Shown here piece by piece: positions 2,605 to 54,124 of a DNA stretch of 54,345 nt. The stretch lies in assembly GCA_021786105.1 (NCBI GenBank), contig JAJYNW010000003.1:1-54345 (forward strand). Reading direction: 5' to 3'. The stretch is from a bacterium. GTDB taxonomy: Bacteria > Patescibacteriota > Microgenomatia > Daviesbacterales > UBA10151. The notes beneath the pieces were generated by a model. The model made no database searches. It was not told where the DNA came from and was given only the letters and a program-made list of their open reading frames with translations. The number at the start of each line of letters is the position of its first letter. Position 1 is the first letter of the stretch. The translations under genes and the position numbers were made by a program.

Positions 2605-3717
2605 TTAATTAAGCTTTTTTTCTGTTGGTTTAATAATTTCTGCAATAGGAGACTTCGTATTTCTAATATCACCCACCTCCCTAACGCCTGTCTGGGCCGC
2701 CCCCATCGCAGGTGTAATAGGATATACCCCTAATTTTGTACCAATATCACCGCTAAATATCTTCACTGACCCCAACCAATGCTGACGGCGCATCATTTCA
2801 TGTTTAGAATTTTCGGGGGAAAGTTGGATTGCACCATATTCAGCATGATTTAAACCAGCTGTTTTTGCTCCCATTTGGGATTTTTTGGAATTGTAATGCC
2901 ACCATTCATCCTCATAAGGTTCAAAACCAGCTTCTGTCATTGTGTTATATAAAATTCTTCTATAACCTAAAGCTTCATGTTCTTCAGAGGTTAATTTTCT
3001 TTTAGTAGCAAGTTTTTCATAATAGTTAAGAGCAGCTTCCGGTCCTCCGTGATCAAAATTGGTGCCGAAATTTAAAAGCTGGATATTGGCCTCAATTAGA
3101 GCTATTTTTCGCATCTGTAGTTTATATACTTTTTCCCAATCTTTATTTCCTAACTTAGCTACTTCCTGATTAATTTGTTGCACCTCCTTCTCTATATTAG
3201 GGGGTAGTTTAAAGATTGCTGTATCTACAGAACCACCAGTGTTATGAGGAGAAGGACGATTTGGATCAGTTGATGGAATAGATACAAAAACTTGAGTTGC
3301 TTTAGATAATTCTTCATCAGTTAAATCCGGGTGCATTGTTTTCAGTTCATTTAAATAACCATCGTATAGAGACTGCTGAACTCTTAAAGTTCTATACGCA
3401 TCAAAAACAATTAAATACATTCCTGTTGGTAATAGTAACTGAGCTTTTTTAAGTTGTTGAGCTGCTTCCTGCCGAACAAACATTGTAACCAAACTCCCTT
3501 CTAAAGAACTGCTAGGATAAGGCGAGTCTTTTTTCTCACCAAAATAGATCGAATGGGTGAAGATTTCATCATTGCAGGAAAAAGGACCGAGCGGAACTAA
3601 AGGTTCACCGTTTTCTCTTAAGAAAACTTCCTTCCAACCAGTCATAGAAGGAAGCTCAATAGGAACTGGTCTGCTGGTTAAGTCTGGATTAAATTTTCTT
3701 TCTCCATCCAGATTCAT
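2605..3717 (-). CDS. D-alanyl-D-alanine dipeptidase, peptidase M15D (VanX/DdpX family)
   Basis: DAYR, SPHNTGGSVD (SxHxxGxxxD), FD and EWWHY zinc-peptidase motifs. Confidence 0.85.
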   Translation of the reverse strand: MNLDGERKFNPDLTSRPVPIELPSMTGWKEVFLRENGEPLVPLGPFSCNDEIFTHSIYFGEKKDSPYPSSSLEGSLVTMFVRQEAAQQLKKAQLLLPTGMYLIVFDAYRTLRVQQSLYDGYLNELKTMHPDLTDEELSKATQVFVSIPSTDPNRPSPHNTGGSVDTAIFKLPPNIEKEVQQINQEVAKLGNKDWEKVYKLQMRKIALIEANIQLLNFGTNFDHGGPEAALNYYEKLATKRKLTSEEHEALGYRRILYNTMTEAGFEPYEDEWWHYNSKKSQMGAKTAGLNHAEYGAIQLSPENSKHEMMRRQHWLGSVKIFSGDIGTKLGVYPITPAMGAAQTGVREVGDIRNTKSPIAEIIKPTEKKLN

Positions 3718-3735
3718 ACCTAAAGAATAACAAAT

Positions 3736-5742
3736 TTATCTGAGGAAAGGTACCAGCAGTAAAGCAACTATATTTACTACCTTAATCATTGGGTTAATAG
3801 CTGGACCCGCCGTATCCTTGTATGGGTCACCGACCGTGTCACCAGTGACTGCGGCTTTGTGGGCCTCGGAACCCTTGCCGCCAAACTTTCCGGATTCAAT
3901 ATATTTTTTGGCATTATCCCAAGCCGCTCCGCCGGTAGTCATGGACACCGCCACAAAAATCCCCGTCACAATTGACCCTACCAGCATCCCACCCAAAGCC
4001 ACCGGCCCTAAGACAAAACCAACAATGACCGGTGACAAAACCGGAATCAAAGCCGGCACCAGCATTTGTTTTTGAGCTGAAGCGGTCACGATATCAACAC
4101 ATTTGGCATAATCCGGTTTGGCGGTGCCTTCCATAATTCCTTTAATAGTTCTAAACTGTCGTCTGACTTCCTCCACCACTGACGCACCGGCTTTACCCAC
4201 TGCCTCCATAGCAAAGGACGCAAATAAGTAGGGTAAAGCGCCTCCGATAAAAAGACCGACCAAAACTTTGGGATCTGATAAGGAAAATGTCAATTCGTTC
4301 CCTCCGGCACTAAATTCTTGGGCATATGCCGAAAATAAAACCATGGCTGCCAAAGCAGCAGAACCAATGGCGTAACCTTTAGTTACCGCTTTGGTAGTAT
4401 TACCAACCGCATCCAAAGGATCAGTCACACCGCGAACTTTAGGAGGTAAATTAGCCATTTCAGCAATACCGCCGGCATTATCGGTAATCGGCCCAAAAGC
4501 ATCTATTGCCACTACAATCCCTGCCAAAGAAAGCATCGTTACGCCAGCCAGCGCTATTCCGTAAAGTCCGGCCAAAACAAAACTGACCATCACCGCCAAA
4601 GAAATTAAAATAATCGGCCACAAAGTTGAGCGCATCGATAAGGCCAAACCGGCAATAATATTGGTGGCGTGACCTGTTTTAGAAGCCAAAGCCAAATTCT
4701 GCACCGGCGCATATTGAGTACCGGTGTAATATTCAGTGATAACTACCATGCCTCCGGTTACCAATACTCCGATTAAGGCAGCCAGGTATAAATTCAAAAC
4801 CGGGTAAACGCCGTTATTTCCCATCAGTCCTGAGGCTACCGGATAAAACAAAACCGCACAGAGCACTGCAGTTACAATCATGCCCCTATATAGGGCCTTC
4901 ATAATATTTTTGCTGGTGAGCTTAACAAAAAACGATCCGATCACCGAAGCAAAAATTCCCATGGCTAAGATGAATAAGGGAAAAATTACTGCTGAATCAA
5001 AAGCCGGAAAAAGCAGCTGGCCTAAGATCATGGAAGCAATAGCCGTAACCACGTAAGTTTCAAAAATATCTGCCGCCATACCGGCGTCATCACCCACATT
5101 ATCACCCACATTATCCGCAATCACAGCCGGGTTTCTCGGATCATCCTCCGGTATTCCGGCTTCAATTTTACCCACCAAATCAGCTCCAACATCTGCTCCT
5201 TTGGTAAATATACCTCCGCCTAACCTGGCAAAAACAGAAATCAAAGAACCGCCAAACCCCAAACCAACCAAAGACTTTAAATCTCCGCCAGTGTATTGAA
5301 AGAAGCCGTAAACTGCTGCCAGCGCCAAACCCACTACCAAAAATCCTGTCACTGCCCCGCCTTTATATGCCAACCCAAAAGCCTCTGACAAACCTTTCTT
5401 GGCTTCCTGGGTTACTCTCACATTAGCTCTAACCGCCACACTCATGCCAATAAAACCAGCCAATCCCGAAAGCACTGCACCCACCAAGAATCCGATGGCA
5501 GTATTTTTACCTAAGACATAGAAGATTAAAGCGGCTAAAACAACCGCCACCAAAGCCACCACTTTATATTGTCTTTGCAAGTAAGCTGCAGCTCCCTCTT
5601 GAATCGCCGAGGCAATTTCCTGCATTTTTCCGTCTCCGGGGTCTTTTCGCAATATATCTACAATTAACCAAATACCATATCCCAGTGCCGCCACAACCGC
5701 AGCCCAAATTATTAAAGTTACATTATTTATTATGAAGTCCAT
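3736..5742 (-). CDS. hppA: Membrane-bound ion-translocating pyrophosphatase, probably K+-independent H+-PPase
   Basis: [50 protein letters not shown]; GNTTKA (Lys) marks the K+-independent type. Confidence 0.95.
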
Positions 5743-5807
5743 GAAAATATAGGCGGCAGTTACTAGAATTTACACTAGAAGCTATTATTTAGTCAAGTGG
5801 ATGAATT

Positions 5808-8231
5808 TTAAGCCATGTAGGCAGGAGGGGGAGTCGGAACGGTTTTTCGGGCTTTGGGTTGAGGAGGTCTGATTAAAGCCACCTTCAAAACTTCGTCCAT
5901 GTGTTTGACAAAAACGAATTTCAAATCTTTTTGTACATAATCCGGAATATCTTCAATATCTTTCTCGTTATCTGCCGGGGCAATCACAGTTTTCACCCCC
6001 GCCCGGTGCGCCGCCAAAACCTTTTCTTTTAATCCGCCAATTTCCAAAACCCGTCCCCGCAAAGTTACCTCACCAGTCATTGCCACATCCTTTTTAACCG
6101 GAATCTTGGTAAAGGCAGAAACTATGGCGGTAGTTAAAGTAATACCAGCTGACGGTCCGTCTTTAGGAATAGCTCCCTCCGGCACATGAACGTGAACATC
6201 AACTTTTTGGAAAAAATTTTCCGGAAGTCCCAAACTTAACCAGTGCGACCTGACATAAGACATGGCAGCCTGCCCTGATTCCTTCATCACATCTCCCAAT
6301 TGCCCTGTTAATAGCAAATTGCCTTTACCCGGCATTAAAGTCACTTCAATAAACAGCACCTCTCCGCCGGCCTCAGTCACTGACAAACCAGTAACCATAC
6401 CGATTTCATCTTCCTTCTCAGCCAAAATCGGCAGGAATTTAATCGGACCCAGGAACTTATGCACATCAGCTGGTGTAATGGTAAATTTCTTCACCTCACC
6501 ATTACCTTCAGCAATTTTTCTGGCCACTTTCCTGATAACTGCTGACGCTTCCCTTTCTAAGCTTCTGACGCCTGCTTCCCTAGTGTATTCCCGGATGATT
6601 GAAGATACTGCTTCATCTCCAAACTCAATCTGGTTATCCTTTAAACCATGGTTTTGTACCTGTTTGGGAATTAAGAATTTTTTGGCGATATGAAATTTCT
6701 CATCTTCTGTATATCCCGGGTACCTAATAATTTCCAACCTGTCTCTTAAAGCCGCCGGAATGGTATCCAAAATATTAGCTGTCGTGATAAACATCGCATT
6801 GGAAAGATCATAAGGAACTTCCAGATAATGGTCGGAAAATCCTTCGTTTTGTTCCGGATCCAAAGCTTCCAAAAGCGCTGCCGAAGGATCACCCCGGTAA
6901 TCTGAACCGATTTTATCAATTTCATCCAGCATAAACACCGGGTTAGTAGCACCAGCCTGCTTAATCCCTTGGACTATTCTACCCGGCATGGAACCCACAT
7001 AAGTCCGCCTATGCCCTCTGATCTCTGCTTCATCCCGGATACCGCCTAAGGAAACTTTGACGAATTTGCGGCCTAAAGCTCTGGCAATAGATTTACCGAT
7101 GGAGGTTTTACCGGTTCCCGGCGGACCGACAAAACACAGGATCGGCCCTTTCATTTTGCCTGCTAGCTTGTAGACGGCCAAATATTCAATGATTCTTTCC
7201 TTAACCTTTTTTAAGCCATAGTGATCCGTATCTAAAATTCCTTCAGCTTTCTTCAAATCAACCCTGCCTTTCCTCTCCAACTTCCAGGGTAAATCCGTCA
7301 GCCATTCCAAATAATTCCTGATGTAACCCGCTTCCGGGTTATAAGAAGACATCTTAGCCAGTCTTGATAGCTCTTTTTTAGCCTTCTCCAATACCTCTTT
7401 CGGCATCCCGGCTTTTTTAATTTTGAGCTCAAATTCCCTGATTTCCTGGTGCTCTGCATCTGAACCGCCTAATTCTTCCTCTATGCTTTTCATCTGCTCC
7501 CGCAAAATTGCCTCTTTGGTCATCTTGGACACTCTTTCCTGAGTTTGTGAGGAAATTTTTTGGGAAATTTCTAAAATTCTGATCTCCTTGGCCAGAAGCT
7601 CTGACAGTCTTTGCAGCCTTTCCACTGCTGACACCATTTCCAGAATTTGCTGTTTATCGATAGTTTTAAAATCAATTGCCTGAGTAATGGAATTAACTAA
7701 TTGATTGGGATCATCAGAATAGGTAAACAGGGACCAATTGGCAATGTTGCTTTGATCAAAGAAAGGATTGCCGCCTAACTCCAAATAGCGCTTAACCTGT
7801 TCCCGGACAGTTCTAACCAAAGCCTCTGTCTGTTCGGTTTTCTCATAAAGGTCAGGAATTTCTTCTATTTCTGCCTCGAGATAGGCTTCTGTTTGAGTAA
7901 AATTCTTCAAAAATACCCGGCTTAATCCTTCTGCCTGCAAAGTGTACTCGCCCTCAGGATTCTTCACTACTCTTCTAATCAAACAAACCGTGCCGACCTT
8001 ATAAAGATCTTTCTCTGCCGGATCTTCAATCTTGCTGTTTTTTTGGGTCACAAAAACTATTAACTTATCAGAATTCCAGGCCGTATCTAAAGCCGCTTTG
8101 GATTTTGGCCGGCCGGAAATAATCGGAACTGAATTACCGGGAAAAATAACCGTATCGCGCAAAGGGCCAACTGGCATGGTTGGTTTCAGTTTTAGAGGTT
8201 CGCTTGTCAGAGGTTTCATAAAATCAGCCAT
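5808..8231 (-). CDS. lon: ATP-dependent Lon protease
   Basis: LON N-domain, Walker [23 protein letters not shown] catalytic Ser, GGLKEK. Confidence 0.97.
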
Positions 8232-8237
8232 ATTTAT

Positions 8238-8264
8238 TTAGCAGTTTACAATCTCGAGTGCTAA
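8238..8264 (-). promoter_or_regulatory. CIRCE element (HrcA operator) overlapping the lon promoter
   Basis: Minus strand TTAGCACTC-N9-AACTGCTAA vs consensus TTAGCACTC-N9-GAGTGCTAA; overlaps TTGACT (8266-8271), 17-bp spacer, TAAACT (8243-8248). Confidence 0.85.
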
Positions 8265-8281
8265 AAGTCAAGATCCCAAAA

Positions 8282-8815
8282 TCAATAATCTACACCCTTT
8301 TTTGCCAAAATTCCCTTTTCAAACGGGTGTTTAATCGGTTTCATTTCAGTTACCAAATCTGCCATATCAATCAGCTTCCTGGAAGCGTGATGACCGGTTA
8401 ATATTAAATCAAGATCCCGAGATTTTGCTTTGATTAGCCTCACAACCAGTTTTTGCGGCAACAGTCTGGAGGCAACTGCCCCGATTATTTCATCTGCTAC
8501 TACCACATCCCATTTTCCCGAAACTACTTCCTTATATAATTTTTCAAAAGTTTCTTTGGCAGCTTTTTTGTGTTCTTTTAAAGGCAATTTATCACCTAAA
8601 ATTTTGACAAACCCTTTACCGCCTTGGATAAATTTCACAAAAGGGGAGAGTTTTTTGACTCCTGCCACCTCACCAGTAAACCAAACCTTACCAAACTGAA
8701 CTATCAAACACCTTCTTTTGTAGCCTACAGCCCGCAGCACCAAACCTAAGGCCGCCGTGGTTTTCCCTTTTCCTTCACCAGTATAAACAATTACCAACCC
8801 CTTTTCCCCGCTCAT
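8282..8815 (-). CDS. cobO: Cob(I)alamin adenosyltransferase (CobO/BtuR)
   Basis: VYTGEGKGKTTAALG P-loop, DEI, LTG, ADLVTEM..KHPF..G....GVDY. Confidence 0.92.
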   Translation of the reverse strand: MSGEKGLVIVYTGEGKGKTTAALGLVLRAVGYKRRCLIVQFGKVWFTGEVAGVKKLSPFVKFIQGGKGFVKILGDKLPLKEHKKAAKETFEKLYKEVVSGKWDVVVADEIIGAVASRLLPQKLVVRLIKAKSRDLDLILTGHHASRKLIDMADLVTEMKPIKHPFEKGILAKKGVDY

Positions 8816-8847
8816 AAGCAAATTTTACCAAAAACCCACTCCTCCAT

Positions 8848-8867
8848 ACTTCCACCTCGGGGGTGGA
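8848..8867. repeat. REP-like hairpin, left of RAYT
   Basis: ACTTCCACCTCGGGGGTGGA, self-complementary (TCCACC/GGTGGA) and exact reverse complement of 9565-9584. Confidence 0.85.
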
Positions 8868-8873
8868 GGGGTA

Positions 8874-8902
8874 TTGACACCTCGGTAATTTTTACCTACT
8901 AT
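8874..8902 (+). promoter_or_regulatory. Sigma70 promoter of RAYT (near-leaderless)
   Basis: TTGACA, 17-bp spacer, TACTAT; ATG 8 nt downstream. Confidence 0.75.
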
Positions 8903-8910
8903 GATCTCAT

Positions 8911-9555
8911 ATGCCAGCCAGAATCATTCCTCTAGTTAATGGCCAGTTTTATCATGTCTATAACCGTGGAGTAGAAAAAAGACGAATCTTCGAAAATAGG
9001 GGAACATACGCAAGATTCTTACAAACAATTAATTATTACCGATTAGAAGGACCTAAACCAAAATTTTCTAACTTCATCAAATATAAAGTATTCAAGCCTA
9101 ATCCAGATAAAAAGATTGTTGATATTATCTGTTACTGTCTAATGCCAAATCACTTCCATTTTCTGATCAAACAATTAAAAGAAGGTGGGATAAGTGAATT
9201 TATCAGCAAGCTCACCAACAGCTATACTAAATTTTATAATACTAAATTCAACAGAGTTGGGCCTTTATTACAAGGGCAATTTAAAGCAGTTTTGATTGAA
9301 TCAGATGAGCAATTAGTCCATGTTTCCCGTTATATACACTTAAATCCTGTTTCCTCGTTCTTAGCGGAAACACCTGAAGATTACGAATGGTCATCCTACA
9401 GTGAATATTTTAAAAACAAGGGGATTTGCATAAAAGAAGAAATACTCAGTTTTTTTAAATCTGCCGTCAATTATAAAAAATTCGTTGATGATCAAATTGG
9501 CTATGCGCAGGAATTGGAATTAATCAAACACCAATTACTAGATGCTGAAGATTAA
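8911..9555 (+). mobile_element. REP-associated tyrosine transposase (RAYT, Y1 HUH family)
   Basis: YHVYNRG, YCLMPNHFH (HUH), GPLLQGQFK, YIHLNPV, WSSY motifs; flanked by inverted hairpins. Confidence 0.9.
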
Positions 9556-9562
9556 GTACCTG

Positions 9563-9584
9563 CTTCCACCCCCGAGGTGGAAGT
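9563..9584. repeat. REP-like hairpin, right of RAYT
   Basis: CTTCCACC-CCCGA-GGTGGAAG perfect 8-bp stem; inverted copy of 8848-8867. Confidence 0.85.
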
Positions 9585-9593
9585 GTATTGAAT

Positions 9594-9757
9594 ATGAATA
9601 TAATTAATAAATTAGTGTTTTATGGAGTATTTGAAGACATTAACGCAGCCATTACCAGAGAAAAACAAATCAAAGTGGTTCGAGAGAGAAGAAATTAAAA
9701 CTCATTGAATCAAAGAATTCTGGATTTGAGGATTTATGTGGTTCCAGTGTCAGGTAG
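9594..9757 (+). pseudogene. C-terminal half of a small GIY-YIG nuclease, frameshifted
   Basis: INKLVFYGVFEDINAAITREKQIK then, in a shifted frame, GSREKKLKLIESKNSGFEDL; the N-terminal GIY-YIG motifs are absent. Confidence 0.75.
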
Positions 9758-9772
9758 AATTATCCTGAGCCA

Positions 9773-9804
9773 GATTGTTTCGTCGCTACGCTCCTCGCAA
9801 TGAC
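9773..9804. repeat. Half of a palindromic repeat of the GATTGCTTCGTCG...CTCCTCGCAATGAC type
   Basis: GATTGTTTCGTCGCTACGCTCCTCGCAATGAC just downstream of the GIY-YIG remnant; family recognised from memory. Confidence 0.55.
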
Positions 9805-9813
9805 AATACAGAA

Positions 9814-9849
9814 TCAACACATGCTGTAGCCACAACTGTGGCACTTTTT
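9814..9849 (-). repeat. Synonymously recoded duplicate of the last 12 codons of nrdJ
   Basis: Encodes KKCHSCGYSMC* like 9913-9948, with 6 differences, all at third codon positions. Confidence 0.9.
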
Positions 9850-9912
9850 AAGGACAACGTAGCCGTTACAAGACAACGATCATTGTAACAGGCAGAGTTT
9901 TCGCAAGAAATG

Positions 9913-12531
9913 TCAACACATACTGTAACCACAACTATGACATTTCTTACAGCCTTCTTCCATCACAAAAGAGGCTGAGCCGCATTCGGGACAAAGATCA
10001 GCATTAACATTAGACTGCGGTTTGTAGGCGGTTTGCGCTTCATCGCTGTTGTTATCATTAATTGTCAGATTTAATGGTATTGTCTCCATGCTGGTCTGCG
10101 GGGTCATTGATAAATCCTCCGCCAAAGTTTTGGCAATAGCATCAGCCAAGCTCATCACCCGATTTTTCCCAAAACCAACACTGGATGCTCCCCCAATACC
10201 TTTGAGTTGATTAACAATCTTCAAAGCCACTGCTTTAGGATCAGTCTCTTTAGCGCCTCGGGCCAATCTCAAAGACAAAGATACTAATCTACCCATGGCT
10301 TCCGCATCAGCCATAGTGTGCATTCCCGCTCTTCCCACAGTTACAAACACCTCAAAAGGCTGATCATCTTCATCTCGGTTAACCGTGACAAAAGCTTCTC
10401 CCACCGGGGTAGAAATTTTATAAGTCCGACCCCGTAAAATCATCGGCCTTTCAGCCACCGGAGCGGCCGGATTCTCTTTGGCAGCATTCAAAGAAGATGA
10501 AACATTCAAAACCTGGGTACTCTTGGAGCCATCCCGATAAATTGTAATGCCGTTACAACCCAACTCATAAGCCATCACGTAGGCAGTGCGGACATCATCA
10601 CGGGTTGCAGAATTGGGAAGGTTAATGGTTTTGGATACTCCGTTATCCGTATGTCTCTGGAAGGCGGCCTGCATTTTAACGTGCCAAACCGGGTCAATCT
10701 CCTGAGCCGTTACAAATACCTTCTGGTACTCTTCCGGCACCTCAGCTAGACCTTTAACAGATCCGTGCTCCAACACCTTAGCAGCTAAGTCATCGCTGTA
10801 AAATCCTTCCCTTTGGGCGATCTCAGTAAAAGTTTTATTGGCAATAGTTAAAATCCGGTACTGATCACCTTTGGCTTTAGCTTTGTGAATATAGGCTAAG
10901 GCAAACACCGGCTCAATACCGGAAGAGCAATCACCAATAATGGAAATGGTGCCGGTCGGCGCAATGGTGGTAATGGTGGAATTTCTGATCTGTCTTCCTC
11001 CCGCATAAGCATAAGAGGCTGGCCGATTTCTAAAGGCTGAGGCATCCTTATCAGCATAAATTGAGTTTACCCAATTCGGAAAAGCGCCATGGTCTTCTGC
11101 CAACTCCTCAGACGTCTTGTGCCCTTCCTCGTTAATAAACTTCATCAAGCTTTCGGCCAATTGCAGCGCTTCATCAGAATCGTAAGGAATCTTTAATTTG
11201 AAAAGCATATCAGCAAAACCCATTACCCCCAAGCCAATTCTTCTATTACCATGCACCTGATCATAAATTTGCTTTAAGGTGTAAGGATTGGTTTGTACTA
11301 CGTTATCTAAAAAGCGGACTGCAGTCCGGGTTACCCTCTTTAGCTCTTCCCAATTCACATCCGATCCATCAGGCAATACAAACTTACCCAGATTAATTGA
11401 TCCCAAGTTGCAGGCATCCCAAGGTGCTAGCGGCTGCTCTCCGCAAGGATTAGTTGATTCAATCGTCTCCAAAGACGGAATCGGGTTTGCAGGAGAGTCA
11501 TTAATCCTGTCAATAAAGATAAGCCCCGGATCACCTGTTTTCCAGGCCCGTTCAATTATTTCATCAAAAACCTGCGTTGCATTGAGTTTACCGACCGCTT
11601 CCCCGTTATGCGGAATAATCAGTTCATAATCTTCACCCATTTTCACTGCCTCCATGAATTTATCCGTGATAGCTACCGAGATATTAAAATTGGCAATTTG
11701 TTTATCCAAAAGCAGCGTTTTAACATATTCTCTCGCCCCATCATCCGGTAAAAGCGGCGCAATCTGCTCATAAACCGGTTTATTCAAATCATCCAGTTCT
11801 GCCTTACAACGGATAAACTCTAAAATATCCGGATGATCCACCCGCAAGATTCCCATATTAGCCCCGCGTCTGGTCCCACCCTGTTTAATGGATTCTGTAG
11901 CGGCATTAAATACCTTCAAAAACGACACTGGACCGGAAGCCACCCCACCAGTGGTTTTAACAATACTGCCGGCAGGGCGAAGCCGGGAAAAAGCAAATCC
12001 GGTTCCGCCACCGGTCTGGTGAATTAAGGCAGCGTACTTGACGGCATCAAAAATTTCCGGCAGAGAATCACCCACCGGTAAGACAAAACAAGCCGAATAC
12101 TGCAAGCCATTTTGCTTTCCGGCATTCATAATGGTGGGGGAATTAGGCAAAAACTCCTGTCGCACCATCATGGTATAAAACTCTTTAGCCAAATTTTCCA
12201 CGAACTGCGGTTTCACTCCAAAATCAAAATCACCTGAAGCCACATCGTAGGCTATCCGCCAAAACCTTTCTGCCACAGTTTCCGCAACTTCTAAATTACC
12301 CCCCTTGAGGAGATATCTTTCCTGTAAAATTTTGTTTGAGCTTTCTGAAAATGTTGGTTGGGGCAAACCGACCGGAATTTCCGGCATCTTTTTGTAACGG
12401 GGAATAAACCTGGTTTCAAAAGTCCGAACGCTTTGATCTAAACCATTTGTTTTATGTTCACCATTAGTCTTTCTTTTACCCTGGGTTCTTGATACTGAAA
12501 CAATTTGTGAGGTAGTGTTAGTTTTTTTCAT
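9913..12531 (-). CDS. nrdJ: Class II (adenosylcobalamin-dependent) ribonucleotide reductase
   Basis: PNSPT, SACFV, GGGTG, RRGANM, TNPCGEQ, CNLGS, APTGT, SKTINLP, C-terminal TSCPD region and CPEC...CHSC zinc ribbon. Confidence 0.95.
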   Translation of the reverse strand: MKKTNTTSQIVSVSRTQGKRKTNGEHKTNGLDQSVRTFETRFIPRYKKMPEIPVGLPQPTFSESSNKILQERYLLKGGNLEVAETVAERFWRIAYDVASGDFDFGVKPQFVENLAKEFYTMMVRQEFLPNSPTIMNAGKQNGLQYSACFVLPVGDSLPEIFDAVKYAALIHQTGGGTGFAFSRLRPAGSIVKTTGGVASGPVSFLKVFNAATESIKQGGTRRGANMGILRVDHPDILEFIRCKAELDDLNKPVYEQIAPLLPDDGAREYVKTLLLDKQIANFNISVAITDKFMEAVKMGEDYELIIPHNGEAVGKLNATQVFDEIIERAWKTGDPGLIFIDRINDSPANPIPSLETIESTNPCGEQPLAPWDACNLGSINLGKFVLPDGSDVNWEELKRVTRTAVRFLDNVVQTNPYTLKQIYDQVHGNRRIGLGVMGFADMLFKLKIPYDSDEALQLAESLMKFINEEGHKTSEELAEDHGAFPNWVNSIYADKDASAFRNRPASYAYAGGRQIRNSTITTIAPTGTISIIGDCSSGIEPVFALAYIHKAKAKGDQYRILTIANKTFTEIAQREGFYSDDLAAKVLEHGSVKGLAEVPEEYQKVFVTAQEIDPVWHVKMQAAFQRHTDNGVSKTINLPNSATRDDVRTAYVMAYELGCNGITIYRDGSKSTQVLNVSSSLNAAKENPAAPVAERPMILRGRTYKISTPVGEAFVTVNRDEDDQPFEVFVTVGRAGMHTMADAEAMGRLVSLSLRLARGAKETDPKAVALKIVNQLKGIGGASSVGFGKNRVMSLADAIAKTLAEDLSMTPQTSMETIPLNLTINDNNSDEAQTAYKPQSNVNADLCPECGSASFVMEEGCKKCHSCGYSMC

Positions 12532-32196: not shown

Positions 32197-32296
32197 CTTA
32201 CTTTCATTCTACCATCACCAGTTCAGAGAAAATTCCTGTAATAATCGTCACTGAAATATTTACCCAAAAGAATTACAGTTAAAAAATAAAAATCAC

Positions 32297-32362
32297 CGCT
32301 GGCAGGCTCAGGAAAAGGCAGGTGGGGAAACCTATCTGCTGACAGCCTGTAAACCTGCCAGC
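32297..32362 (+). ncRNA. Candidate cis-regulatory structured RNA, copy 1
   Basis: 49 bp identical to 38091-38139; nested stems with GAAA tetraloop; upstream of yjbQ-like gene. Confidence 0.6.
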
Positions 32363-36841: not shown

Positions 36842-37498
36842 TCAAAAGTATTTCTGAAACCATTCAACTGCATAACCTGCCACGTCTTCTAATGCGCCCG
36901 GTTCTTCAAAAAGATGGGTGGCACCAGGGATAATAACTAATTCCTTGTTTTTAGCATTGGTAAGTCTGCTTAAAGCTTGGTTATTTAAATCAATAACTTC
37001 ATAATCTTCTCCTCCTACCAGTAACATGATTGGGGCTTTGACCCGGCCTAAGGCCTCGCCTGCCAGATCAGGCCTGCCTCCTCTTGAGACTATTGCCTCA
37101 ATTCTTTCAGGTAGCTGGGCAGCTGCTACTATGGCTGCTGCTGCACCTGTTGAGGCTCCAAAATAACCTACTTTAAGGTGTTTTGTTTTAGGATTTAGAT
37201 TGACAAAGTGTGTAGCGTAAATCAGGCGGCCTGCTAGAAGGTCAATATTAAAACGATGTTCCCGGGTAATTTCATCTTCTTTTTCTTCCTCTTCTGTTAA
37301 TAAATCTACTAATAGTGTGGCAATAGCTGCCTTGTTGAGTTCTGAAGCCACAAATTTATTTCTCGGGCTGAACCTGCCGCTACCGCTGCCATGAGCAAAG
37401 ATAACAATCCCCTGAGCCTTCTTAGGAACAGCTAAATTTCCTTTGATCGGCACTTCTTCAGCATTAATGTCAACTTCCTGATTTAAACTTTTATCCAT
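36842..37498 (-). CDS. Dienelactone hydrolase-like alpha/beta hydrolase
   Basis: FAHGSGS.R.SPRN, GYFGASTG, SRGGRPDL, HLFEE. Confidence 0.88.
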   Translation of the reverse strand: MDKSLNQEVDINAEEVPIKGNLAVPKKAQGIVIFAHGSGSGRFSPRNKFVASELNKAAIATLLVDLLTEEEEKEDEITREHRFNIDLLAGRLIYATHFVNLNPKTKHLKVGYFGASTGAAAAIVAAAQLPERIEAIVSRGGRPDLAGEALGRVKAPIMLLVGGEDYEVIDLNNQALSRLTNAKNKELVIIPGATHLFEEPGALEDVAGYAVEWFQKYF

Positions 37499-37919: not shown

Positions 37920-38090
37920 AAAATCACCTCCTTCTACATTTAATCTAATTTTTATCCTAGCAGTCAGATTTAAGTTAAGGAGTAGAATAGGGTAAGAATT
38001 GTGAAAGATAAAGTAACTTTACCCAATCCTTACATCTTTCATATATTTTTCATATTTTGTTTTGCCGAAACTTATGTATACTAATAATCA

Positions 38091-38148
38091 CGCTGGCAGG
38101 CTCAGGAAAAGGCAGGTGGGGAAACCTATCTGCTGACAGTCTGCCAGC
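38091..38148 (+). ncRNA. Candidate cis-regulatory structured RNA, copy 2
   Basis: 11-bp outer stem, 9-bp inner stem with GAAA loop; starts 8 nt after TATACT (38077-38082) and ends 14 nt before the ATG. Confidence 0.6.
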
Positions 38149-38162
38149 AGTTAAATTCCGGC

Positions 38163-38891
38163 ATGAAAATCATTTTTCTTGGCACAGGGGCAAGCGGCGG
38201 TACTCCGGGAACAGATAAATCTCTTCGGCTAGAAAGCTCTCTTCTTATTAAAAACAAGCTAAATATTTTAATTGATGTAACCAGAAATTTTGTTGAACAA
38301 TCCAAAAAGATAGATAAAACTGATGACATCCTTCTAACTCACGGCCACCAAGATGCCTGTGGCGGAATTAATCAACTACGGAGTTGGTGGCAATCAAAAA
38401 ATCTTCCACCCATTCCGGTTTTTGCTCACCGGAAGGTGATTACCCGAATCCAAAAAAAATTCAAACAACTAGATCATTGTAAATTCATTGAAATCAAAGA
38501 TCACCAAAGTTTTAATTTAGGTCAATCCAAGATCACTGCTTGCCAAGTACCTCATACAAAAGATAAAAACTTCCCTACCTTTGCCTGGAAGATACAAGAT
38601 CAAAAAATCGTGATTTACGCCTCGGATATAGCTATTCCGACAACGAAATTCAAAAACTTTTGCAAAGATGCGAATCTTTTAATAATTGATGGTGCTACCT
38701 GGAAAAGAAAAATTTTTACCCATCTTAGGATAGATCAGGATTTACCTAAAATTTGCCAATGGCCGGTTAATAAAATAATTCTCACCCAAATCGGTAAATC
38801 GGTACCGCCTCACGAAAAGTTTACGATGGAGGTTGCCAAAATTTGTCCCAAGGCAATACCTGCCTATGATGGAATAGTAATACCACTATAA
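38163..38891 (+). CDS. Metallo-beta-lactamase-fold hydrolase (PhnP-like)
   Basis: FLGTGASGG, LID, THGHQDA, PH, YASD, H, AYDG. Confidence 0.82.
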   Translation: MKIIFLGTGASGGTPGTDKSLRLESSLLIKNKLNILIDVTRNFVEQSKKIDKTDDILLTHGHQDACGGINQLRSWWQSKNLPPIPVFAHRKVITRIQKKFKQLDHCKFIEIKDHQSFNLGQSKITACQVPHTKDKNFPTFAWKIQDQKIVIYASDIAIPTTKFKNFCKDANLLIIDGATWKRKIFTHLRIDQDLPKICQWPVNKIILTQIGKSVPPHEKFTMEVAKICPKAIPAYDGIVIPL

Positions 38892-39749
38892 TCCTTTATC
38901 GTTAGCTGTTTGTTTTCGTCTTTCCGGTTCAGGTGAATACGGCACCGGGATATACTGCACTGACGGACGCCGTCCGGAAGATTGAGGATACAGCTCCATC
39001 AGCTGATAAATCTCCCCTGGCAAACCGACCTGGACCGGCAGGCCAATTCTTTTGGCAATCTCATAATCTATCGGGTAATCATGAGTCCACTGGCCCGAAC
39101 TCAACAAATTAGCTATTTCCACAGCCCTTTCTTTTTTCATGTTATTACCGACCAAAATATCCACTATCGCCTCGCAAACCTGTTTTAACCCTTTCTTGGC
39201 TACATCCGCCAAAACGAGAGTTTTGTCATCAATATTTTTCATCGGCTTTTGCTTTAAAACATTCAGCAAAGAAACTGCTGGATACTCCCCGATTTGCGGA
39301 TCCAGCGGCGATAATACGGCATTTTCATCCATCACAATCTCATCCCCGGCAAAAGCAATTAAACTACCGCCAGACATAGCATAATGCGGAATAAAAATTG
39401 TGACTTTTGCTTGATGTTTAATCAAAGCTTTGGCTATTTGCTCAGATGCCAACACCAACCCTCCCGGAGTGTGAACAATCATATCGATTGGGGTATCAAC
39501 CGGGGTCAACCTTATAGCCCTTAGAATACTCTCCGAATCCTCAATATCAATAAAGCGGGAAAAAGGCAAACCTAAAAAAGAAAATACCTCTTGCCGGTGA
39601 ATTAACACTATCACCCGGCTTTTTCTTTTCTGCTCTAATTGTTTTATTAAACTAAATCTTTGGAATTCCAAGTATCTGTATTGCAATATTGGCACTATAG
39701 TGAAAATAAAAAATAATATGAATAACAAATCAATAATGGAAATATTCAT
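38886..39749 (-). CDS. Membrane-anchored SDH-family ClpP-fold serine protease
   Basis: IHRQE, HTPGG, PHYAMSGG.LIA, PLDPQ, WTHDYPI. Confidence 0.88.
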   Translation of the reverse strand: MNISIIDLLFILFFIFTIVPILQYRYLEFQRFSLIKQLEQKRKSRVIVLIHRQEVFSFLGLPFSRFIDIEDSESILRAIRLTPVDTPIDMIVHTPGGLVLASEQIAKALIKHQAKVTIFIPHYAMSGGSLIAFAGDEIVMDENAVLSPLDPQIGEYPAVSLLNVLKQKPMKNIDDKTLVLADVAKKGLKQVCEAIVDILVGNNMKKERAVEIANLLSSGQWTHDYPIDYEIAKRIGLPVQVGLPGEIYQLMELYPQSSGRRPSVQYIPVPYSPEPERRKQTANDKGL

Positions 39750-40504
39750 AATAACTTGGCCAATTTTTCATCAACCTTCGAAGCCACCCTTTTACTGTGT
39801 AACAAAACATCATTTAGAGGAATATTTAACTCTGTGATAAATTGGCCCAAAATCATTTGGTTCAATGGATAAGGTAAATGCTTTTTGATTTTAGGTATCA
39901 TTTCAGCATGGCCGCCGATAATTAGAAAGTGAATATCTTTACCCATAAAAAAATCAAAGGTTTTTTTGGCAATCGTTTGTAAATGACGGTGCAGATGATC
40001 TTCGATATGACGGAAAATTTTATCATCCCTACCCCAGTCAATTTTTTTCGCCTTCACATTTTGCGGCACTTCCCCATCAAACACTAACTTTTCCTCTTCG
40101 ATTTTTCCTAAATTAACTGTAAACAACCTGGCCTTTTTTCTATCCACCAGCAAAACCAAGTATTTACTATATTTTTTTACTGCGTCCTCTATCGGCTTTA
40201 AATAAGGCTGGGAAGAAGTTTTAACCAGGGGAGGCAAGTAAAACTCAAAATCTAAAACTTGCCATAAATCTTTGCCCGCAGTAAAAAAAACTAAGGACCT
40301 GGCACTGCTTTTATTAATAGATTCATGTAAATATTCCTCAATTCTGGCACTATCACTTTGCCACTCTTTTTGCTCTATATCTTTCAAATTCTGATGAATT
40401 AACGAGTGGAATTGGGATATGTAGAAACTGGGATACGGAACCTGTTTACCAGAACTGCTTAAATAGACAGACAAAATTGAAGTTTTTTTGTCCATTCTGT
40501 TCAT
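39746..40504 (-). CDS. Bacterial aeRF1-like (baeRF / Balon-like) protein lacking the C-terminal domain
   Basis: LSVYL N-domain, PYLKP, YLVLLVDRKKARLF, FRHIEDHLHRHL, LIIGG; no NIKS or GGQ; 252 aa. Confidence 0.72.
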   Translation of the reverse strand: MNRMDKKTSILSVYLSSSGKQVPYPSFYISQFHSLIHQNLKDIEQKEWQSDSARIEEYLHESINKSSARSLVFFTAGKDLWQVLDFEFYLPPLVKTSSQPYLKPIEDAVKKYSKYLVLLVDRKKARLFTVNLGKIEEEKLVFDGEVPQNVKAKKIDWGRDDKIFRHIEDHLHRHLQTIAKKTFDFFMGKDIHFLIIGGHAEMIPKIKKHLPYPLNQMILGQFITELNIPLNDVLLHSKRVASKVDEKLAKLL

Positions 40505-40914
40505 GAGAACCTTCCCCTAATTGAACCATGATCCGGATATTGGCTTTCTGTTGCAAAATGCAAATCCTTATATTTTTTTAATTCCTTAAAAATTAATTCA
40601 AAACAGCGGTCAACACACTCTTCGATAGTCTGACCTTTAGAATGCACATAAAGCTGATTCTTATCCAACCGGAAAGTAATCGCGCCTTCAAAAAAAGCTA
40701 GGGCTGGTTTTGTATCGGCATAAGTTTTATGCCGCTGCTGGTGTGTTCTTGGAGGGTGATACCGGTCAATATTTCTTCTGAGTGTTAACCGAAATACGAT
40801 TAAATCCTCCTGTATATCCGGCAGCGACTGGGTAACTTTTTGAAGATGTCGGTTTATATATTGGTTTATTTTTGATGATATACGGCAATTTTCACAAGTC
40901 AGTTTAAAAATCAT
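40501..40914 (-). CDS. HPF/RaiA-like ribosome hibernation protein with a loop insertion
   Basis: Beta-alpha-beta-beta-beta-alpha pattern: ISSKINQYINRHLQKV...LYVHSKGQTIEECVD...KELKKYK. Confidence 0.68.
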   Translation of the reverse strand: MIFKLTCENCRISSKINQYINRHLQKVTQSLPDIQEDLIVFRLTLRRNIDRYHPPRTHQQRHKTYADTKPALAFFEGAITFRLDKNQLYVHSKGQTIEECVDRCFELIFKELKKYKDLHFATESQYPDHGSIRGRFS

Positions 40915-41118
40915 CTATTAAAAAAATTTTCATCTCTAATGCCCAGTTGAGGGGTAAACTCAAGAAATGTTTAGGCAGATGCGTAAATAAAAAATTTTAG
41001 ATCTCCCTTTATTTCTCAAAATGGCTTGATATCTCTTAGCAAAAGCGAATCTGTCGCTTATCAAGCCTTTGTCTACCCCCAAACCTGAGCAATATGATTT
41101 ATATACCAGGCCGGAGTT

Positions 41119-41146
41119 TTTTGCAGTGATATTTATCACTGCAAAA
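41119..41146. promoter_or_regulatory. Perfect inverted repeat with CRP/FNR-like core between divergent genes
   Basis: TTTTGCAGTGATA-TT-TATCACTGCAAAA (13-bp arms; GTGA-N6-TCAC core). Confidence 0.6.
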
Positions 41147-41162
41147 TAATTGTTAAATTATT

Positions 41163-41873
41163 ATGTTTAAAAAGCTTAGAAAAATAATGCATAACTTAGA
41201 TGTGCCAAAGGATGATCATGACAAAGACTACATTGTAACCATTCCGACAAACGGTGTTTTTGTGGAGGGTATCTTAAGAATTCCGCACAGCGCCCGCGGC
41301 CTTGTTCTGTTTGCCCATGGCAGCGGTAGCAGCAGGAATAGTCCCCGGAATAACTTTGTAGCAGGAATTTTAAGGCAAGCCAGAGTTGGCACATTGCTTT
41401 TTGACCTATTAACCGAAGAAGAGGATTTGATTTACGAAAACCGTTTTAATATTGAACTCCTAACCGAGAGATTAATTAAAACTACTGAATGGATTAATAG
41501 ACAACCGCAAGGTAAAAAACTATCCATTGGTTATTTTGGAGCCAGCACCGGAGCCGCCTCAGCTTTTAAAGCTGCAGCCAGATTAGGATCAAAGATTAAA
41601 GCAGTCGTATCAAGAGGTGGCCGACCGGACTTGAGCTTAGATGAAATAGAAAAAGTTAAATCCGCAACTCTGCTGATTGTAGGCGAGAATGATCCAGAAG
41701 TAATTACCTTAAACCAACAGGCTTATTCAACACTTAATACCACTAAGAAATTAGAAATTGTTCCGGGAGCCAGCCACCTTTTTGAAGAATCCGGAACGCT
41801 GCAAAAGGTAGCAGAGTTAGCCAGGGATTGGTTTAAAAAATATTTAGCCCATGATAAAAAAGGCGCCCTCTAA
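41163..41873 (+). CDS. Dienelactone hydrolase-like alpha/beta hydrolase (second paralog)
   Basis: FAHGSGSSRNSPRN, GYFGASTG, SRGGRPDL, HLFEE. Confidence 0.88.
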   Translation: MFKKLRKIMHNLDVPKDDHDKDYIVTIPTNGVFVEGILRIPHSARGLVLFAHGSGSSRNSPRNNFVAGILRQARVGTLLFDLLTEEEDLIYENRFNIELLTERLIKTTEWINRQPQGKKLSIGYFGASTGAASAFKAAARLGSKIKAVVSRGGRPDLSLDEIEKVKSATLLIVGENDPEVITLNQQAYSTLNTTKKLEIVPGASHLFEESGTLQKVAELARDWFKKYLAHDKKGAL

Positions 41874-54053: not shown

Positions 54054-54124
54054 TTGCGGGACTAGGATTCGAACCTAGATAGACACATCCAGAGTGTGCC
54101 GTACTACCATTATACGATCCCGCA
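54054..54124 (-). tRNA. tRNA-Gln(CTG)
   Basis: TGCGGGA/TCCCGCA acceptor stem, GCACA-CTCTGGA-TGTGT anticodon arm, GGTTCGAATCC; CCA not encoded. Confidence 0.95.

Follow-up and report, generated by a model that had tools for sequence, protein, structure and literature searches.

Can a bacterium with a very small genome silence its ribosomes with a relative of Balon that lacks the domain with which Balon contacts EF-Tu? This question is raised by three overlapping genes on contig JAJYNW010000003.1 (assembly GCA_021786105.1; Patescibacteriota, Microgenomatia, Daviesbacterales, UBA10151), of which positions 1 to 54,345 were analysed; 'the window' refers to this whole stretch of 54,345 nucleotides (nt). 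Balon was seen together with RaiA on ribosomes in 2024, and its C domain was described as the part that contacts EF-Tu (Helena-Bueno et al., PMC10901736). In the window, a gene for an HPF/RaiA-fold protein of 137 amino acids (aa) is followed by a gene for a 252-aa Balon-type protein without this domain and then by a protease gene. With a probability of about 0.7, the first two genes form a ribosome hibernation module with two factors, of the HPF/RaiA plus Balon kind already known, located in a stress/dormancy island of a ~1-Mb Daviesbacteria-type Patescibacteria genome. The genome sequence comprises 1.04 Mb in 26 contigs and is 92 % complete, and those homologues that carry organism names come from Candidatus Daviesbacteria and other Microgenomates. 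The features concerned are as follows.

40501..40914, minus strand: HPF/RaiA-fold gene, 137 aa (Pfam Ribosomal_S30AE and predicted fold)
39746..40504, minus strand: Balon-type baeRF family 10 gene with N and M domains, 252 aa (PF18854 and predicted fold)
38886..39749, minus strand: SDH-type ClpP-fold serine protease gene with an N-terminal hydrophobic anchor, 287 aa (PF01972, NF047768)
41122..41143, no strand: perfect palindrome of 22 bp, core of CRP type, a candidate operator for the stress island

An earlier note made from the DNA alone (the sequence-only reading) had described three genes joined by 4-bp overlaps, and the list of open reading frames (ORFs) bears this out: an ATGA stop/start overlap lies at both junctions, so that the TGA and the following ATG have bases in common. 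A purine-rich stretch is found ~8 nt 5' of the start codon of the second gene. Contigs from runs X1 and X2 cover 38110-41400 with zero differences, while a variant-strain contig in X4 (39418-41129, 3 differences) crosses both overlaps. As independent contigs from X1, X2 and X4 cross the junctions, the gene arrangement is not an assembly artefact.

The 252-aa protein matched Pfam baeRF_family10 (PF18854) over residues 100-236 with a score well above the cut-off (69.2 bits vs 27.1; 70.5 bits in a genome-wide search). Scores for three NCBIfam hibernation families were all below their cut-offs (Rv2629, 26.2 of 320 bits; AOC03_06830, 20.6 of 330; MSMEG_1130, 12.5 of 480), and the NCBIfam matches consisted of weak M-domain matches to the Rv2629 family and to aRF1. 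An AlphaFold2 (AF2) model, folded with 39 relatives, had a predicted local distance difference test score (pLDDT) of 86.5 and showed an N domain (residues 10-111) and an RNase-H-like M domain (residues 115-251), with a low-confidence loop of 21 residues (143-163) between strand 3 and a long helix. Balon chains led the Foldseek results for this model (8v9l_z, E 4.5e-13; 8rd8_B), followed by aRF1/eRF1 and then Pelota. Structural alignment with VIA-align gave Z 16.9 and a root-mean-square deviation (rmsd) of 3.1 Å over 236 residues for Msmeg1130 (chain residues 15-268 of 362), Z 16.1 for Psychrobacter urativorans Balon (chain residues 8-269) and Z ~14 with an rmsd of 8-13 Å for eRF1. The superpositions on Msmeg1130 and Balon indicate that the N and M domains are placed as in ribosome-bound Balon, with the last ~100 Balon residues unmatched. 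Alignment to Balon ends at chain residue 268-269 of 360-375, where the 252-aa protein stops at residue 252, and no eRF1_3 (C-domain) match was found on the protein in the Pfam scan. Both the aeRF1/Balon fold and the missing C-terminal domain that had been proposed from the DNA are therefore upheld, ribosome-bound Balon being the best structural match.

The assignment of the 137-aa protein depends more on fold than on sequence scores. Ribosomal_S30AE (PF02482) was matched only marginally (24.5 bits vs a cut-off of 23.7), TIGR00741 was below its cut-off (13.2 bits vs 40.9), and a precomputed PF02482 match was present in 2 of 28 close homologues. The AF2 model (pLDDT 80) showed a beta-alpha-beta-beta-beta-alpha arrangement plus a tail, with an insert at residues 51-72 between strands 2 and 3. 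The top Foldseek match was RaiA chain 8rd8_D of the Balon-RaiA ribosome structure (E 1.6e-6, TMt 0.79), and 37 PDB matches had E<=0.001, those listed being HPF, RaiA, YfiA or pY chains without exception. The HPF fold named in the sequence-only reading is thus confirmed, as is the insertion rich in His, Arg and Pro, which is basic and 22 residues long (~51-72; 3 His, 3 Arg, 3 Pro). This insertion is kept within the genus; other Microgenomates have it in different lengths and sequences, and 2 of 20 aligned relatives lack it. The C-terminal tail (~residues 115-133) is conserved and poorly modelled.

Pairing of the two genes was examined in 40 relatives searched for the factor, including 18 congeners, and in a separate set of 46 loci from a species-representative collection, several of which end at contig ends; HPF-like genes were detected with a hidden Markov model built from the 137-aa protein. 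The factor was found in 6 of the 18 congeners and in one genome of another genus. An HPF-like gene lay directly upstream of the factor in all six congener loci and in 15 of the 46 wider loci, one gene away in a further locus (L033), and within a longer upstream ORF at two Nitrospiraceae loci; the Saccharimonadia-type loci in this set contained no HPF-like gene. This shows that the pairing is conserved, in keeping with the sequence-only reading. HPF-like genes were present in 10 of the 18 congeners and were solitary in four of these (G001, G003, G005 and G011), with no baeRF match or remnant found behind them, indicating that the HPF-like factor is independent of its Balon-like partner. The 137-aa gene is the sole S30AE match in the genome, and because no other gene of this type was found the organism probably relies mainly on this pair for hibernation, as judged from gene content; RMF was not found in this 92 % complete genome. 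A complex prediction for the 252-aa and 137-aa proteins scored 0.00, below the mark, which counts neither way.

Two further observations concern the HPF-like genes. In G003 and G011 the lone gene adjoins a phosphoribosyltransferase (PRTase) gene (L078 2427-2837 and L080 2748-3182). One representative, P0039 (384 aa, from one 1685-bp contig), carries an HPF-like domain at residues 1-130 (hhalign probability 99.9 %) fused to an N+M baeRF, and could be either a natural HPF-like::baeRF fusion or an artefact of one miscalled base in the ATGA overlap.

The short form of the factor belongs to a large clade. A word-indexed search with the 252-aa protein gave 268 homologues at E<=0.001, of which the best 120 were used for the figures; among these matches listed, 120 of 120 carried PF18854 and 118 were 229-290 aa in length with 46-79 % identity. 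An exhaustive profile search gave 2078 cluster representatives at E<=0.001. Among the best 150 of these, 53 were of 200-299 aa, 16 were shorter than 200 aa, four were of 300-349 aa and 77 were of at least 350 aa, with the 200-299 aa class taking nearly all of the top ranks. Full-length forms (~365-380 aa) were more distant relatives, found in other Patescibacteria and in other phyla; one gene of the Patescibacteria full-length type (L072, 364 aa) scored 101 bits for PF18854 and had a weak eRF1_3 match. In an even sample of the phylum, 11 of 200 other genomes had a match, every open frame being 363-488 aa long. M-only factors of 140-177 aa were observed at about a dozen loci, and 'micro' forms (141-153 aa) at L008 1468-2330, L009 1447-2282 and L035 5516-6456 showed 4-bp coupling to an HPF-like gene. 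Congeners are among the carriers of such a coupled M-only factor, namely G009 and G014. As judged from lengths and domain matches, the family forms a reduction series from N+M+C through N+M to M alone.

These distributions bear on what the 252-aa gene is. The sequence-only reading had called the factor truncated and had allowed that, were close relatives full-length, this copy would be a degraded gene. Close relatives proved to be short as well, so that the factor is a conserved short form and not a degraded copy. A decayed, functionless remnant of a full-length Balon gene, for which the full-length relatives elsewhere and the many congeners without a factor might be cited, is almost certainly the wrong description: the frame ends exactly at the start of a complete protease gene with no C-domain remnant behind it, the closest homologues share its length class, the aligned relatives have many invariant columns and the two-domain model is confident, and even the M-only form is itself conserved and HPF-coupled. 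Conservation of the short form contradicts this possibility. A different question is whether the factor is an enzyme. Neither NIKS nor GGQ is present in the 252-aa translation, as had been noted from the DNA, but that note overlooked Val146-Pro147-Gln148, which sits in the loop that matches the GGQ loop, between strand 3 and the next helix, and is the same in all 39 aligned relatives. Burroughs & Aravind (2019, PMC6514570) singled out family 10 for a conserved loop glutamine, possibly catalytic, and neither of the two RF-1-domain matches in the genome (frames of 351 and 364 aa) is ArfB-sized. The protein might thus be an active, stop-codon-independent peptidyl-tRNA hydrolase, serving as an alternative release or rescue factor in which Gln148 acts as the Gln of the eRF1 GGQ and after which the HPF-like protein parks the emptied ribosome. 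This is unlikely. Gln148 has no adjoining Gly-Gly and is located near the base of the 21-residue loop, in which the least confident residues (151-154) are Lys-rich. In an alignment of 151 rows (the best 150 representatives and the window's own protein), the loop contained GG[W/F] in 40 of 81 full-length forms (at least 300 aa) vs 2 of 54 N+M forms, GGxSQ in 13 of 81 vs 0 of 54, and [V/I]PQ in 6 of 81 vs 37 of 54. Gln at position 148 was retained in 33 of the 46 genome loci; by a hand count from the alignment, 7 of the 39 loci with a short form have P, R, K or S instead while keeping the flanking helix motif. Msmeg1130 has Ala-Pro-Gln at the position of Val-Pro-Gln in a profile alignment, yet it is a hibernation factor of solved structure that is described as having no GGQ (PMC10901736). 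Finally, the genome encodes RF1, RF2, SmpB and Pth. Because of the motif counts, the Gln148 replacements, the Msmeg1130 alignment and the presence of these four proteins, loop 143-163 is read as a putative rRNA-binding element like the lasso loop described for Balon (PMC10901736), and the 252-aa factor is most likely non-catalytic on the sequence evidence.

The role of the third gene has also to be weighed. The 287-aa protein scored above the cut-offs of both PF01972 (SDH_protease; 386.5 bits vs 31.3) and NF047768 (402.7 bits vs 250). Its HTPGG and AMSGG blocks were kept in all five SDH sequences covering them and its LDP and THD blocks in all six, including a shortened congener copy; these blocks should hold the residues of the Ser-Asp-His triad. 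An N-terminal hydrophobic segment is followed by a basic stretch, and by the positive-inside rule the protease would be membrane-anchored and cytoplasm-facing. A dedicated protease for release had been proposed in the sequence-only reading, i.e. a three-part system in which the membrane-anchored enzyme degrades the HPF-like and Balon-like factors and so ends hibernation. The protease is intact and its gene is coupled to the factor gene by an ATGA overlap; moreover, an SDH gene lies on the same strand within ~3 kb of the pair at L035 and L055, and a shortened copy lies ~2.6 kb from it in G012. As SDH is rare (above cut-off in 6 of 41 related genomes, this one included), these co-locations are, by a rough estimate, unlikely to be pure chance. 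However, only in this genome does an SDH gene directly follow the pair. None was found in the 1.5-kb flanks on each side of six congener pair loci, it was within 6 kb of the factor in 2 of the 46 loci (L035 and L055), and in G010 the SDH gene and the pair are on different contigs. In relatives the third slot behind the pair holds nothing or a P-loop-kinase-like gene. A protease co-translated with its own substrates would also need an extra control step, of which there was no sign. The company of SDH at the other two loci points elsewhere: at L035 (Patescibacteria) the order is PGA_cap, RtcB, SDH, archease, RtcB, HPF-like gene and M-only baeRF, and at L055 (Nitrospiraceae, 3280-10811, all on the same strand) it is three BON genes, HPF, a full-length Balon (417 aa), rhomboid, SDH, Hsp20 and HtrA. 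By its gene content L055 is an island of stress proteostasis genes that surrounds a hibernation pair, here from another phylum. Since SDH is seen among rhomboid, Hsp20 and HtrA genes and in an RtcB-archease operon, general stress proteolysis is favoured; a release role for a dedicated protease is improbable, and the gene distribution suggests that SDH is a recurrent but optional member of stress islands. A literature search on SDH, ClpP-like and DUF114 proteins found no published link of SDH proteases to ribosome hibernation. Less probable still is the fullest version of this idea, in which Balon shrank in a Microgenomates clade to a plug of two domains (or, in some genomes, of the M domain alone) that needs no EF-Tu, the co-translated, membrane-tethered SDH protease here clears the factors from ribosomes as a timer or wake-up switch, and the recurrence of SDH in three distant lineages reflects a real but optional link.

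Side observations were made at two of these loci. The SDH copy of G012 (L075 5513-6136) is 207 aa long, stands behind dienelactone hydrolase (DLH) and PGA_cap genes and is probably inactive, as it has no catalytic core and is short of ~80 residues, the HTPGG and AMSGG blocks among them; the gene coupled behind the baeRF in this genome encodes a 303-aa P-loop-kinase-like protein. At L055, the longest reading frame joins the HPF to a sigma-70 region-4 ORF.

Several points count against a hibernation module of the HPF/RaiA plus Balon kind. By sequence, the 137-aa protein only just qualifies as an HPF (24.5 vs 23.7 bits, with TIGR00741 far below cut-off). The factor is patchy within the genus (6 of 18 congeners, with four more having the HPF-like gene alone), which indicates that it is dispensable. 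The HP motif, the lasso loop and the bL27 trap of Balon were not locatable in the 252-aa protein from the passages on Balon, which are without residue numbers: a weak profile alignment (E 0.098) sets the Balon His-Pro opposite a loop that retains the Pro and not the His, and the position of the lasso loop corresponds to the 21-residue low-confidence loop of the model. The invariance of Val-Pro-Gln in 39 aligned relatives, together with the description of family 10 as possibly catalytic in PMC6514570, also weighs on this side, as does the recurrence of SDH near the pair in three distant lineages, above chance by a rough estimate; SDH may have some functional tie to the island.

In the hibernation module as we read it, stress would switch the operon on, possibly via the CRP-type box upstream. 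The HPF-like protein would then bind the 30S decoding channel, and the 252-aa factor would occupy the A site as Balon does. Without a C domain the factor would have to load and stay in place without EF-Tu contact, and it would most likely be non-catalytic. EF-Tu independence is plausible by analogy because the domain with which Balon contacts EF-Tu (PMC10901736) has been lost. The SDH protease would be an optional stress-island gene that landed in the third slot of the operon in this genome, where its probable role is general proteolysis at the membrane under stress and not the clearing of the two factors.

If this is correct, ultrasmall bacteria silence their ribosomes with a Balon unable to touch EF-Tu, and such a protein would show which parts A-site occupation requires. 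Natural minimal constructs for structural work would come from the reduction series (three domains, N+M, M alone), and a main hibernation system bears on the survival of episymbiotic Patescibacteria without a host. The protease link, if true, would be a new way out of hibernation, for which the evidence is thin.

Comparison with known systems places the 252-aa factor close to Balon but outside its defined families. Like Balon (P. urativorans; Msmeg1130, Rv2629), it has N and M domains in the ribosome-bound orientation and neither NIKS nor GGQ, and its gene lies beside one for RaiA/HPF, in a stress island that also holds RtcB and a BON/OsmY-like gene, features given for Balon in PMC10901736. 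Unlike Balon, it lacks the EF-Tu-contacting C domain (~100 residues after ~268), shares only 11-12 % identity, remains below the NCBIfam cut-offs of the three hibernation families and has the clade-specific Val-Pro-Gln. Because this C domain is absent and the NCBIfam equivalog cut-offs were failed, the factor is a Balon-like relative and not a Balon orthologue. With baeRF family 10 it shares a PF18854 match above cut-off. A 'variant two-factor hibernation system', as it was termed in the sequence-only reading, is not new: Burroughs & Aravind (PMC6514570) described loss of the C-terminal Pelota domain, or of the two flanking domains together, in baeRF-1 families, as well as their linkage to HPF, and proposed an A-site-blocking role for the baeRF-1 clade. 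Sampled full-length members of family 10 often have GG[W/F] or GGxSQ, whereas the short clade of Microgenomates and Saccharimonadia has Val-Pro-Gln. GGxSQ is the motif given in PMC6514570 for archaeal and actinobacterial VLRF-1. Among the full-length family-10 representatives (P0149-P0293), 13 of the 40 with a GG[W/F] loop read GGxSQ, and some full-length members may be true hydrolases. The literature searches made found no printed account of a Balon without its C domain in Patescibacteria, and the supplements of PMC6514570 and PMC10901736 may list the clade; literature pairing Balon with Patescibacteria or the candidate phyla radiation (CPR) consisted of incidental co-mentions only.

The other two proteins also resemble known families. 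The 137-aa protein shares with short HPF/RaiA (YfiA; PF02482) the beta-alpha-beta-beta-beta-alpha fold and the absence of the long-HPF dimerisation domain, and differs in its 22-residue basic insertion, conserved 20-residue tail and divergent sequence. The 287-aa protein is full-length and high-scoring with its conserved blocks intact, like SDH-type ClpP-fold proteinases; a difference is that its gene is translationally coupled to a hibernation pair, an arrangement seen in this genome alone.

The operon is surrounded by genes of a stress island. These comprise an operon of UPF0047, PRTase, phosphoribosyl pyrophosphate (PRPP)-synthetase-like, PGA_cap and RtcB genes, a dienelactone hydrolase, a BON protein, an MBL-fold hydrolase and a second dienelactone hydrolase. 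Recurrent neighbours across the 46 loci were Crp/Fnr (12 loci), PRTases (8), cupins (8), DLH (6), RtcB (5), Hsp20 (5), USP (5) and PEP-utilising enzymes (5); RaiA, RtcB, OsmY and Hsp20 are given as neighbours of Balon genes in PMC10901736. The two dienelactone-hydrolase-family paralogues (36842-37498 and 41163-41873), ~53 % identical by cross-hits, flank the island, and the gene at 41163-41873 is a conserved divergent neighbour of the HPF-like gene in six related loci.

The palindrome at 41122-41143, with the core GTGA-N6-TCAC, falls within the intergenic region from which the HPF-like operon and this dienelactone-hydrolase gene diverge. It gave one match in the window vs 0 expected. The 16-bp core of the palindrome (AGTGAT-N4-ATCACT) occurs nowhere else in the genome, where a single gene of the Crp/Fnr family was found. 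In 6 of the 46 loci (L019, L026, L035, L045, L052 and L054) an exact box lay at most 130 bp upstream of the unit's first gene, with an overall density of 25 sites in 478.8 kb. From its sequence and position we infer that the palindrome is a candidate CRP-type operator of the stress island. An Rfam scan of the window was empty in the operon region, the sole match in the window being a tRNA at 54054-54124, and a scan for promoters and terminators gave counts equal to the shuffled expectation.

A 62-nt direct repeat, with 95 % identity between its copies, was found at 32287-32349 and 38082-38143, just upstream of the plus-strand operon from UPF0047 to RtcB and of the MBL-fold gene. It had no Rfam match, was absent from the other loci, and public contigs break there. 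The repeat folds as a strong hairpin (-36 kcal/mol, z -5.8) and, to judge from its placement, may be a shared leader or operator.

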